Assembly: GCA_037444445.1 (NCBI GenBank)
Contig: JBBIMK010000023.1
Location: 1 to 30,560, forward strand
DNA length: 30,560 nucleotides
Direction: 5' to 3'
DNA from: a bacterium
GTDB lineage: Bacteria > UBP7 > UBA6624 > JBBIMK01
Position numbers and translations under genes: made by a program
Shown: positions 15,275 through 17,799 of the stretch, piece by piece
How the letters are laid out: the number at the start of each line of letters is the position of its first letter
How positions within the stretch are numbered: position 1 is the first letter of the stretch
Notes under the pieces: generated by a model
Told to the model about the DNA's origin: nothing
What the model saw: the letters and a program-made list of their open reading frames with translations, nothing else
Database searches by the model: none

Positions 15275-17401
15275 ATGGGGAAAAAGCTTTTAGGTGAGAT
15301 TCTCATAGAAGAGGGGTTGCTCACCCCGGCTCAGTTGAATGTGGCCCTGCGGGAGCATAAGCGAACGGGAGAACTCATCGGGCAAACCCTCCACAGGCTG
15401 GGGTTCGTCACGGAAGATGCAGTGATGCGAGCCCTGGCAAACCAGGCGGGCATCCCCTACACCAATCTGGAAAACATGCTCATAGACCCCTCCGCAGTTA
15501 GGACCATCCCTGTGGAACTCGCCAGAAAGCACAAAGTCCTTCCCCTCGGAATCACGGATGGCACACTCACGGTAGCGGTCAGCGACCCCCATGATATACT
15601 CATTCTGGACACCCTGCGTAAAATCACAGGCTATCAGAATATCTCCCGAATGGCTTCCAATGAAGAAACGCTAATGAAAGCCATAGATATGTTTTATGGC
15701 ATCGCAACCACAGAGAACATCATAGAAGCCAGCATTCAGGAAGCGGTGCGCAGTGAGAAGAGTGCAGATGAACCCGACCCTCCCATCATCCGCCTGGTGA
15801 ATCACCTGATCATTGAAGCCATAAAGAAGAGGGGAACCGATATTCACATAGAGCCTGATGAACGCATCAGCCGGGTCCGCTACCGGATTGACGGAGTTCT
15901 GCACGCAGGTCCTGTCATTCCAAAACTCATACACCCGGCGGTGGTAGCCCGGGTCAAAATTATGTCCAGGATGGACATCGCCGAGCAGCGTCTTCCACAG
16001 GATGGCGGAGCCACCTTCTCTTATATCAATCGGGAACTGGACCTGCGGGTCAGCACCCTTCCCACCCATTATGGAGAAAAATTAGTCATCCGCCTGCTGG
16101 ATAAAGAAAGCATAAAATTAGGGCTGGACTATCTGGGGTTCTCCGAGGAGAATCTGAAACTTTTACGCGCTCTCCTTCAAAAGCCCTACGGGATTATTTT
16201 AGTCACGGGACCCACGGGAAGCGGGAAGACCACCACTCTATATTCGGCGCTATTAGAGCTCAACTCCCTGGAGTTAAACATCTCCACGATAGAGGACCCG
16301 ATAGAATATAAACTTCCACTGATCAATCAGGTGCAAGTGAACGAGAAAGCGGGATTGACCTTTGCCTCGGCACTTCGTTCATTTCTCCGCCAGGACCCGG
16401 ATGTGATACTGATTGGAGAGATACGGGACCGGGAGACTGCGGATATGGCATTTCGTGCGGCAATGACGGGGCATCTGGTGTTTTCCACCCTTCACACCAA
16501 CGATGCTGTCAGCGCCATTCCCCGCCTGGTGGACATCGGCGTTCCTCCCTATTTAATTACCTCCTCCCTGTTAGGAGTGGTGGCTCAGCGTCTGGTGCGG
16601 AAAATCTGCCCCGACTGTAAAGTCCGATACACTGCCTCGCCCGAGGAACTGGCGTTGATGGGCTTGCCTCCCGACCGAGAAATCACTCTCTTCCGGGGGA
16701 AGGGCTGTGAAAATTGTCACAGCACCGGGTATAAGGGACGGGTGGCCATTACGGAACTGTTTGAGATGACCCCTGCTATGCGAAAACTTATCGCATCAGA
16801 GATTTCCAGTGATATGCTGACAAAAGCCGCCATTCAGCAGGGGATGAAAACGATGTATCAGGATGGAATGTTGAAGGTTATAGAAGGTGTGACGACGCTT
16901 CAGGAGATTGGACGGGTGGTGCTGGTAGAGGAAGGGGCAGTGAACCCTGCGAAACTGGGGGAGGCGCTTCCCTCCGTTCCGGAAACAGCCCCCCTCCAGC
17001 ACCCGGAAGCGGAAAGGACTCTCCGGGAGCACAGTTTCTCCTCCCCCGCCCCCGCTCCTTACCAGTCCCTGCTCACCGCTCTGGCGGAGGACATCCCTGG
17101 CTTCCTCTCCGCAGTTGTCTCTCACTCCAGCGGAAAAACTGTCTCCTCCTACTCTCTTTTTGACAGTGTCTCTCTGGACAATCCTGCACCTCTTCAATCC
17201 CTTTTCTCCACCCTTCATCTCCCTTCCCTTTCAGAATTCTCTCTGACCACCTCTCGCTTTTATATCCATATTTACCCATTGCCCCACAAAGACTATTACT
17301 TGATTCTGGCATCCTCCCGAGCCACCACCTCTTCTTCCCAGCTAAAATCCACCATCCAGAAGCACCTGACAAACCTCACCTCACCCGTTCCCGTCCCATG
17401 A
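15275..17401 (+). CDS. PilB/GspE-family type IV filament assembly ATPase with a T2SSE_N/MshEN-type N-domain and an unusual ~160-aa C-terminal extension
   Basis: Walker A GPTGSGKTTT. Walker B DPDVILIGEIRD. His box TGHLVFSTLHTNDA. Tetra-Cys CPDC...CENC. The N-terminus LLGEILIEEGLLTPAQLNVAL...IGQTLHRLGFVTEDAVMRALANQ is typical of the GspE N-domain. The canonical fold ends near ...LQEIGRVV (about 16920). Confidence 0.93.
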   Translation: MGKKLLGEILIEEGLLTPAQLNVALREHKRTGELIGQTLHRLGFVTEDAVMRALANQAGIPYTNLENMLIDPSAVRTIPVELARKHKVLPLGITDGTLTVAVSDPHDILILDTLRKITGYQNISRMASNEETLMKAIDMFYGIATTENIIEASIQEAVRSEKSADEPDPPIIRLVNHLIIEAIKKRGTDIHIEPDERISRVRYRIDGVLHAGPVIPKLIHPAVVARVKIMSRMDIAEQRLPQDGGATFSYINRELDLRVSTLPTHYGEKLVIRLLDKESIKLGLDYLGFSEENLKLLRALLQKPYGIILVTGPTGSGKTTTLYSALLELNSLELNISTIEDPIEYKLPLINQVQVNEKAGLTFASALRSFLRQDPDVILIGEIRDRETADMAFRAAMTGHLVFSTLHTNDAVSAIPRLVDIGVPPYLITSSLLGVVAQRLVRKICPDCKVRYTASPEELALMGLPPDREITLFRGKGCENCHSTGYKGRVAITELFEMTPAMRKLIASEISSDMLTKAAIQQGMKTMYQDGMLKVIEGVTTLQEIGRVVLVEEGAVNPAKLGEALPSVPETAPLQHPEAERTLREHSFSSPAPAPYQSLLTALAEDIPGFLSAVVSHSSGKTVSSYSLFDSVSLDNPAPLQSLFSTLHLPSLSEFSLTTSRFYIHIYPLPHKDYYLILASSRATTSSSQLKSTIQKHLTNLTSPVPVP

Positions 17402-17799
17402 CTGAAGAAAGGTCTCATCCCGCTTCACCCCCCCCTCACCTGATACAAATTCTCAAATCCATTCCAGGCTTCCATCGGATGGATGTGATGAACCTGAAGG
17501 ATAAAACAACCGTTCTATCGGTGCACAGCGGTTTGATGCCAGAGGAGCGGGTGGGAGAACTTCCACATCTTTCTCAAGCACTGTTACACTATGTGAATCA
17601 CACAACCCATGGTGATACCCTGGAGGAGGCCTACTGGATGAATGATGTAGCCGCCTATTTCCTGATTCCCACACCGGAAGGTTCCCACATCATCCTCTTC
17701 GCATTCCGTGTGCAACAATTTGACCTGAGGACCGCACAGCAATCCATTCGCCAGTTTCTCCCCACACTTTTCTCTCACCTGCACGCCACCCTGTCATAA
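17398..17799 (+). CDS. Small cytoplasmic protein, paralogous by pattern to the ATPase C-terminal extension (possible Roadblock/LC7-like fold)
   Basis: The ATG overlaps the ATPase stop (ATGA at 17398-17401). LIQILKSIPGFHRMDVMNLKDKTTVLSVHS...AAYFLIPTPEGSHIILFAF...QQSIRQFL parallels LLTALAEDIPGFLSAVVSHSSGKTVSSYS...RFYIHIYPLPHKDYYLILAS...KSTIQKHL in the extension. Confidence 0.6.
   Translation: MTEERSHPASPPPHLIQILKSIPGFHRMDVMNLKDKTTVLSVHSGLMPEERVGELPHLSQALLHYVNHTTHGDTLEEAYWMNDVAAYFLIPTPEGSHIILFAFRVQQFDLRTAQQSIRQFLPTLFSHLHATLS

Follow-up and report, generated by a model that had tools for sequence, protein, structure and literature searches.

Roadblock/LC7 proteins have long been proposed as ancient regulators of nucleoside triphosphatases (NTPases), and the route by which a bacterial Roadblock protein acts on the type IV pilus motor is an indirect one, running from MglB to MglA, from MglA to adaptors and from these to PilB. 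MglB is the dimeric GTPase-activating protein (GAP) of MglA (PMC4316618), and genes for Roadblock proteins (arCOG02603) are frequent in the type IV pilus loci of archaea (Makarova et al. 2016, PMC4858521). The locus described here lies on a stretch of 30,560 nucleotides (nt) from a bacterium of the GTDB lineage Bacteria; UBP7; UBA6624; JBBIMK01 (GenBank assembly GCA_037444445.1, contig JBBIMK010000023.1, positions 1 to 30,560 of the forward strand), and this whole stretch is called the window below. It encodes a PilB/GspE-family ATPase of 708 amino acids (aa) with a C-terminal extension predicted to end in a Roadblock/LC7-fold domain, and a small open reading frame (ORF), directly downstream, predicted to encode a free copy of the same fold. 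The reading that we favor, with a probability of about 0.6, is that of a motor ATPase with a tethered Roadblock domain, paired with the free copy as a regulatory platform.

The catalytic core of the protein was recognized by the Pfam T2SSE model (PF00437) over residues 168-546, with a score of 450 bits against a cutoff of 24.9 (E 5.7e-135), and an MshEN domain was detected at residues 59-145 (Pfam). The Walker A (GPTGSGKT), Walker B (DPDVILIGEIR) and His box (GHLVFSTLH) motifs are intact, and the two CxxC motifs of the tetracysteine are kept at residues 445 and 478. Judging from these motifs, the 708-aa protein is a catalytically intact hexameric assembly ATPase of the PilB/GspE family. Its sequence makes it a member of the superfamily that is not assignable to PilB as opposed to GspE, because it scored below the equivalog cutoff with both NCBIfam models: 605.2 bits against 675.65 for PilB (TIGR02538, residues 6-548) and 576 against 630 for GspE. 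Additionally, a tandem motif for the binding of cyclic di-GMP (c-di-GMP) was detected at residues 6-57 (NCBIfam NF053729, 69.1 bits against a cutoff of 38), and the motor may respond to this nucleotide, besides whatever the Roadblock module senses.

The end of the core falls near residue 549 (the T2SSE match ends at 546 and the NCBIfam PilB match at 548), with about 159 residues beyond this point. An initial annotation of this DNA, made from the sequence alone, had reported some 160 aa past the ATPase core, consisting of a Pro/Ser/Ala-rich linker followed by a segment of about 110 aa. Both parts were found: a linker rich in Pro, Ser, Ala and Glu, of about 45 aa, and a domain of about 107 aa. 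Ordinary PilB/GspE homologs are 545-585 aa long and end at most about 15 residues past the '...EV.RV' motif. The survey of homologs for C-terminal extensions that the annotation had proposed gave the following outcome: among 5.8 billion sequences, the nine protein clusters closest to the ATPase were all 699-753 aa in length, each with a linker and a C-terminal domain of about 110 aa, whereas the next-best matches were again of 545-585 aa. Linker length and sequence vary between these relatives, and in the comparison with L001, the nearest relative, the linker is poorly conserved past a short conserved segment, 'LVEEGAVNPAKL'. It is probably a flexible tether.

An ATPase with 84% identity, encoded on independent contigs (L001 and L002) from the Joint Genome Institute (JGI), carries the in-frame extension too, and it is likewise followed by an ORF of 133 aa with an identical ATGA overlap. 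With the same arrangement in all nine closest clusters, the frameshift or sequencing error that the annotation had considered as a source of an artificial fusion finds no place. The ratio of nonsynonymous to synonymous substitution rates (dN/dS), computed against L001 at a dS of about 1, was 0.06 in the core; the linker reached 0.30, the C-terminal domain 0.29 and the small ORF 0.23. Because of the last two values, the fused domain and the small ORF are regarded as coding sequence under purifying selection, evolving faster than the motor.

In the window, Ser, Pro, Leu, Thr and His abound in the extension and the small ORF, which are C-rich and G-poor on the coding strand, with a GC skew of -0.25 over positions 17001-18000; the 118 aa of the fused domain include 23 Ser, 18 Leu and 12 Pro. 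The relatives from other sub-clades do not have such a composition.

This skewed composition of the window's copy, together with the lack of BLASTP similarity between the extension and the small ORF, is what could be expected if the extension were a frameshift, a read-through fusion or a non-functional, decaying tail that resembles the next ORF by chance or by composition. Such an explanation is very improbable and is already largely refuted, since the fusion is in frame at ten independent loci from different samples, dN/dS remains at 0.23-0.30 at a dS of about 1, and, as described below, the fold predictions are confident and the two modules show profile similarity with an E value of about 1e-6.

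The two modules were modelled separately by AlphaFold2, each from its own alignment and without templates. The model of the fused domain reached a mean predicted local distance difference test score (pLDDT) of 79.6 and a predicted template modelling score (pTM) of 0.73, and that of the free ORF a mean pLDDT of 75.3 and a pTM of 0.70. The same topology, alpha-beta-beta-alpha-beta-beta-beta-alpha, was obtained in both; in the fused domain, its elements are alpha1 (residues 596-606), beta1 (610-617), beta2 (622-627), alpha2 (638-646), beta3-5 (655-681) and alpha3 (687-702). The annotation had named unrelated or disordered folds as grounds for giving up its proposal, and the two models fold alike.

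When each model was compared with the PDB by Foldseek, the top 50 matches were all of the Roadblock/LC7 fold, with template modelling (TM) scores of 0.6-0.75 and E values down to 1e-6. These matches comprised LAMTOR/MP1-p14, MglB, MglC, a Streptomyces Roadblock protein (3kye), Asgard Roadblock proteins (7f8m, 7yh1) and the C-terminal domains of Rag/Gtr proteins. For the fused domain, examples are the Ragulator LAMTOR chain 5y3a_G (E 1e-6) and MglB 6h5b_C (TM 0.75), and for the free ORF, MglC 7ct3 (E 5.5e-5) and MglB of T. thermophilus 1j3w (TM 0.69). A Roadblock/LC7-like pattern had been noticed in the segment and in the ORF by the annotation, and on these models the assignment of both modules to the Roadblock/LC7 fold is well supported. 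They are predicted to be of the extended MglB/LAMTOR type rather than of the 96-aa dynein light chain type because of their long C-terminal helix. With DYNLRB1, hhalign gave a weak in-register match over alpha1-beta1-beta2 (E 0.016, 24 columns).

The relationship between the two modules emerged at the level of profiles. The match between two-sequence profiles was collinear but non-significant; with nine sequences per side (alignments A5 and A4/A7), hhalign aligned the modules end to end over 106 columns, with an E value of 1.9e-6 and a probability of 89.6%, and the reciprocal run gave an E value of 5.6e-7 and a probability of 92.3%. The common order of elements and the mutual similarity that the annotation had read from segment and ORF are thus borne out, and, as judged from these alignments, the fused domain and the small ORF are homologs. 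Fused and free copies have a mean identity of 12% and are nearer to each other in sequence than to anything in Pfam or the PDB. Moreover, the same three sub-clades appear in the fused and in the free set, and these shared sub-clades fit an old divergence, followed by co-evolution of the fused and free copies. The two modules may have originated by local duplication.

A different origin was suggested by BLASTP, in which the extension of the window (17033-17344) matched residues 289-386 of the degenerate PilB paralog encoded at locus L009 (37.4 bits, E 3e-7, 29% over 104 aa). The match falls on the Walker-A region of the paralog ('ALAEDIPGFLSAVVSHSSGKTVSSYSL' versus 'ALASDVPGMIAVAGPPVSGRTTTLYSL'), as though the C-terminal domain descended from a P-loop segment that had been duplicated from the ATPase and had degenerated, and not from a Roadblock ancestor. 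When families were compared by hhalign, however, extension and paralog gave an E value of 0.2 and a probability of 0.3%, and extension and active core gave nothing. The resemblance to 'SGKT' is confined to the window's copy, the nearest relatives having 'NGEVVASHS' and 'RGEVLAFSS' at this place, and the structure predicted there is a beta-hairpin of the Roadblock fold rather than a P-loop with a helix behind it. A P-loop remnant is therefore hardly credible as the origin of the extension and was rejected at the profile level (E 0.2); the BLASTP match, although not fully explained, is probably coincidental.

The small ORF overlaps the ATPase gene by the ATGA that the annotation had pointed out. 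Stop and start overlap in seven of the eight junctions examined, either as ATGA, as GTGA or by about 14 and 29 nt. In the public record of the contig, the product of this ORF (P0001) has 106 aa and begins at M28, and is thus 27 residues shorter. The first 27 residues (17398-17478) are conserved and hold helix alpha1 (residues 13-20) and the start of the IPGF motif. The conservation of these codons, and the helix that they encode, place the true start at the ATG of 17398, within the overlap with the ATPase stop; the public call of 106 aa is too short and lacks that helix, the first of the predicted fold.

A small ORF of 118-144 aa with no Pfam match was found directly downstream of the extended ATPase at all ten independent loci, namely the window, L001/2, L005-L010, L024/25 and L026, so the ATPase and the Roadblock pair are conserved together throughout a small uncultivated lineage. 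The family is rare, with about ten clusters, and its relatives are filed as 'unclassified Bacteria' at the NCBI. Between sub-clades, the identity of the modules is 10-23%, as compared with 54-63% for the core. An exhaustive HMMER search with a profile of the ORF retrieved one new true homolog, P0123, and a spurious, repetitive, gag-like eukaryotic protein, P0124. A word-indexed homolog search with the extension alone returned no matches, which reflects the limit of the index, and nothing was found in ORF-based scans of genome and metagenome contigs. The motif D-I-[AS]-E-x-R-L-P-Q-D-G-G-A retrieved 13 ATPases of Planctomycetota and Gammaproteobacteria from the GTDB species representatives, a collection that does not contain the lineage of the window, and none of the 13 was extended; they end about 240-260 residues past Walker A, versus 395 in the ATPase of the window. 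The nearest non-extended ATPases, from Omnitrophota and Sporomusa, belong to type IV pilus or type II secretion loci of the ordinary kind, which have no Roadblock-like ORF.

The coordinates of the features in the window and of the second PilB-like genes at the related loci are collected in Table 1.

Table 1. Features of the extended ATPase locus in the window, and positions of the second PilB-like gene at seven related loci.
Feature	Position	Strand	Basis
AMIN-domain protein	9494..10627	+	Pfam AMIN
Four tandem large T2SSG-like pseudopilin paralogs, 367-381 aa, N-terminal methylation motif	10703..15136	+	Pfam T2SSG, N_methyl
PilB/GspE-family ATPase gene, C-terminally extended, 708 aa	15275..17401	+	ORF listing, Pfam, NCBIfam
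MshE-type cyclic-di-GMP-binding motif, N-terminal, residues 6-57	15290..15445	+	NCBIfam NF053729
T2SSE ATPase core, residues 168-546	15776..16912	+	Pfam PF00437
Pro/Ser/Ala/Glu-rich linker, residues 550-595	16922..17059	+	Alignment with L001
Fused domain, predicted Roadblock/LC7 fold, residues 596-702	17060..17380	+	AlphaFold2, Foldseek
ATGA start/stop overlap, translational coupling	17398..17401	+	Read from sequence
Gene of the free protein, predicted Roadblock/LC7 fold, 133 aa	17398..17799	+	AlphaFold2, Foldseek, hhalign
Predicted Roadblock domain of the small ORF, residues 13-132	17434..17793	+	AlphaFold2
moaE, molybdopterin synthase catalytic subunit	17807..18262	+	Pfam
T2SSF/PilC/GspF-family platform gene	27778..28917	-	Pfam T2SSF E 7.3e-39, NCBIfam GspF/PilC
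Second PilB-like gene, L005	10635-12290		
Second PilB-like gene, L006	10495-12111		
Second PilB-like gene, L007	4185-5831		
Second PilB-like gene, L008	7507-9120		
Second PilB-like gene, L009	7632-9281		
Second PilB-like gene, L010	7628-9280		
Second PilB-like gene, L026	2043-3689		

Upstream of the ATPase, the order of the AMIN protein and the pseudopilin genes recurs in L001, L006 and L008; no secretin, PilM/N/O or prepilin peptidase genes were found within the window. Downstream, moaE starts 8 nt past the small Roadblock ORF on the same strand, and it follows in L001 and L002 too. It is probably co-transcribed with the Roadblock ORF, and a functional link is not apparent. The window also holds an ORF of 275 aa with no Pfam match (18237-19064, minus strand); it has a syntenic product of 290 aa in L001 and L002 and lies next to a gene for a HAD hydrolase. 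The T2SSF gene of the window is located 10 kb from the ATPase gene on the other strand, where it adjoins uvrA and uvrC and has no PilB paralog beside it. Upstream of it on its own strand is the gene of a protein with cohesin and PKD domains (29388-30335, minus strand).

In the other sub-clades, the extended ATPase and the Roadblock ORF are followed by a second PilB-like protein (537-551 aa), T2SSF, a GT28 glycosyltransferase and an HldE-like protein, in that order. The order with the second PilB-like gene and T2SSF was seen in seven loci (L005-L010 and L026), and several of the junctions overlap. In the second PilB-like protein the c-di-GMP motif is kept, and Walker A (as in 'GPPVSGRTTT' and 'GQPISALIYS'), Walker B and the His box are degenerate. 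From its sequence, it is likely a pseudo-ATPase. This gene is absent after the Roadblock ORF in the window and in L001/L002.

At the other end of the window, the 23S ribosomal RNA (rRNA) gene (189-4944, minus strand) spans 4756 nt, as compared with 2925 nt for the model. It is interrupted by at least two intron-like insertions, since a group I intron (1541-1860, Rfam) and two ORFs for LAGLIDADG homing endonucleases (825-1493 and 2217-2762) lie inside it; the latter encode proteins of 222 aa (LAGLIDADG_2, E 1.8e-45) and 181 aa (LAGLIDADG_1). The window's 16S rRNA occupies positions 5086-6659. The G+C content of the rRNA region is 59-61%, versus about 52% elsewhere, an excess that suggests a thermophile.

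To our knowledge, all structurally characterized Roadblock proteins act as dimers, and translational coupling favors matched synthesis of the two proteins; on these grounds the free copy would most likely pair with the tethered one. Each motor protomer would then carry a heterodimeric Roadblock platform on a flexible leash, comparable to MP1/p14 or to the C-terminal domains of RagA/C. Such a platform could recruit or sense a regulatory partner and in this way set where and when the pilus or pseudopilus motor engages PilC. The partner would most plausibly be another NTPase, and there are two candidates: a Ras-like small GTPase whose gene would lie elsewhere, and the degenerate PilB paralog that most relatives encode directly downstream.

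Several observations weigh against this platform of a tethered and a free Roadblock copy. None of the 18 module members matched Robl_LC7 of Pfam (PF03259) at E<=10, and the sequence profiles of NCBIfam and the PDB recognized neither module as Roadblock, nor did searches with the merged family give a Roadblock match; the fold is assigned through AlphaFold2 models that were built from nine sequences each and have pLDDT values of 75-80. The fast evolution of the domains fits the role of an adaptor, but it equally fits a loosely constrained one. No member of the Ras, MglA, Roc, Arf or Gtr1 families was found by Pfam among the ORFs of the window, nor was any small-GTPase gene present among the called genes within 5-10 kb at nine related loci. 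In addition, the pseudo-ATPase and PilC are not adjacent in the sub-lineage of the window, so that a role tied to them has no support there from local synteny.

The nature of the partner separates two further readings. If it were an MglA-like GTPase of the Ras family encoded elsewhere in the genome, the Roadblock pair would form a platform with the activity of a GAP or a guanine nucleotide exchange factor (GEF), as in MglB, and would link the activity or position of the motor to a switch of polarity, the role that MglA/MglB have for PilB and PilT in Myxococcus. The control of type IV pilus polarity by MglA/MglB is established (PMC4316618, PMC11580455), both models have MglB and MglC among their best structural matches, and the C-terminal helix of both is that of MglB and LAMTOR, unlike the short dynein LC7. 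However, the models fit LAMTOR, the C-terminal domains of Rag and Asgard Roadblock proteins about equally well, and the fold match is thus not specific to MglB; moreover, MglB is a homodimer and not a heterodimer, and mglB and mglA are typically adjacent, whereas the searches for a small GTPase in the window and around the nine related loci were negative. This version is unlikely.

Alternatively, the Roadblock pair could regulate the motor directly and without a GTPase. It might connect the degenerate PilB paralog with the active ATPase, or gate the assembly of the hexamer and its access to PilC, much like the LC7/Roadblock dimer that is built into the dynein motor. We know of no precedent for a Roadblock domain that binds a PilB-type ATPase, and in the window and in L001/L002 it is moaE, not the paralog, that follows the Roadblock ORF. 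Nevertheless, the order of extended ATPase, Roadblock ORF, degenerate PilB paralog and T2SSF is kept in seven loci, with stops and starts that overlap, and the Roadblock superfamily has been tied to the regulation of NTPases in general (Koonin and Aravind 2000, as cited in PMC4316618). Direct regulation of this kind is a tentative proposal, with the odds against it. Its most far-reaching form, in which a Roadblock heterodimer, half of it tethered to each protomer, is an integral motor subunit that works with no small GTPase and couples the active ATPase to the catalytically dead PilB paralog and to the PilC platform, is unlikely. If true, it would give prokaryotes an equivalent of the Roadblock light chain that is built into a motor, and would add a new way of controlling the motors of type IV filaments.

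No account of a PilB/GspE ATPase with a fused Roadblock domain turned up in a full-text literature search, in keeping with the remark in the annotation that no such arrangement was known from characterized members of the family. What appears to be new here, for a known motor and a known regulatory fold, is the domain architecture and the logic of the operon; fold and homology are well supported, and the function is inferred. The predicted placement of a Roadblock fold physically on a PilB/GspE motor, with a free partner that is co-translated, makes for a compact system, one that could be expressed recombinantly for studying the effect of a Roadblock dimer on a secretion or pilus ATPase. A motor-attached Roadblock may also explain the recurrent Roadblock genes in archaeal type IV pilus loci. 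Additionally, the locus illustrates that a Roadblock fold can hide from every sequence model in 'hypothetical' tails and small ORFs.

Among the systems described so far, MglB and MglC of Myxococcus xanthus and Thermus thermophilus resemble the two modules in the predicted fold with its C-terminal helix (TM 0.6-0.75), in their tie to a motor of the type IV pilus or secretion type and in forming a paralogous Roadblock pair within one pathway. Unlike the modules, they are free-standing and not fused to PilB, and MglB reaches PilB only indirectly, via MglA and SgmX. The mglB gene adjoins mglA, whereas no GTPase gene is found near the ATPase here, and no detectable sequence similarity links them with the modules (Robl_LC7 being negative). 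As in MglB and MglC, the structural likeness is close for LAMTOR2/LAMTOR3 (p14/MP1) and the C-terminal domains of RagA/RagC, which are among the best structural matches (5y3a_G, E 1e-6; 1vet, 6s6a). They are the precedent for an obligate heterodimer of two diverged Roadblock paralogs, and in the Rag proteins an NTPase domain carries the Roadblock domain at its C-terminal end. That NTPase, however, is a small GTPase and not a RecA-like hexameric secretion ATPase, the setting is eukaryotic lysosomal signalling, and there is no detectable sequence similarity.

The archaeal proteins of arCOG02603 are similar in their location, since these Roadblock-fold genes sit with the ATPase loci of type IV filaments (PMC4858521), but they are free-standing, uncharacterized and recognizable by sequence as Roadblock/LC7, whereas here one copy is fused to an ATPase of the bacterial PilB/GspE type and neither copy is recognizable in that way. 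The accessory modules known for PilB, MshE and GspE (MshEN, extra GSPII domains, and PilZ/FimX partners) serve the same core, and the c-di-GMP motif of MshEN type is present here too; these modules, however, are N-terminal or act in trans, and ordinary members of the family end at most about 15 residues past the core. Finally, the Roadblock/LC7 protein of dynein (DYNLRB) is short, at 96 aa, and lacks the C-terminal helix; it binds the intermediate chain and not the motor domain, and the two motor families are unrelated. Its likeness to the locus described here lies in the arrangement, as in dynein the Roadblock dimer is a built-in accessory subunit of a ring-shaped ATPase motor complex.

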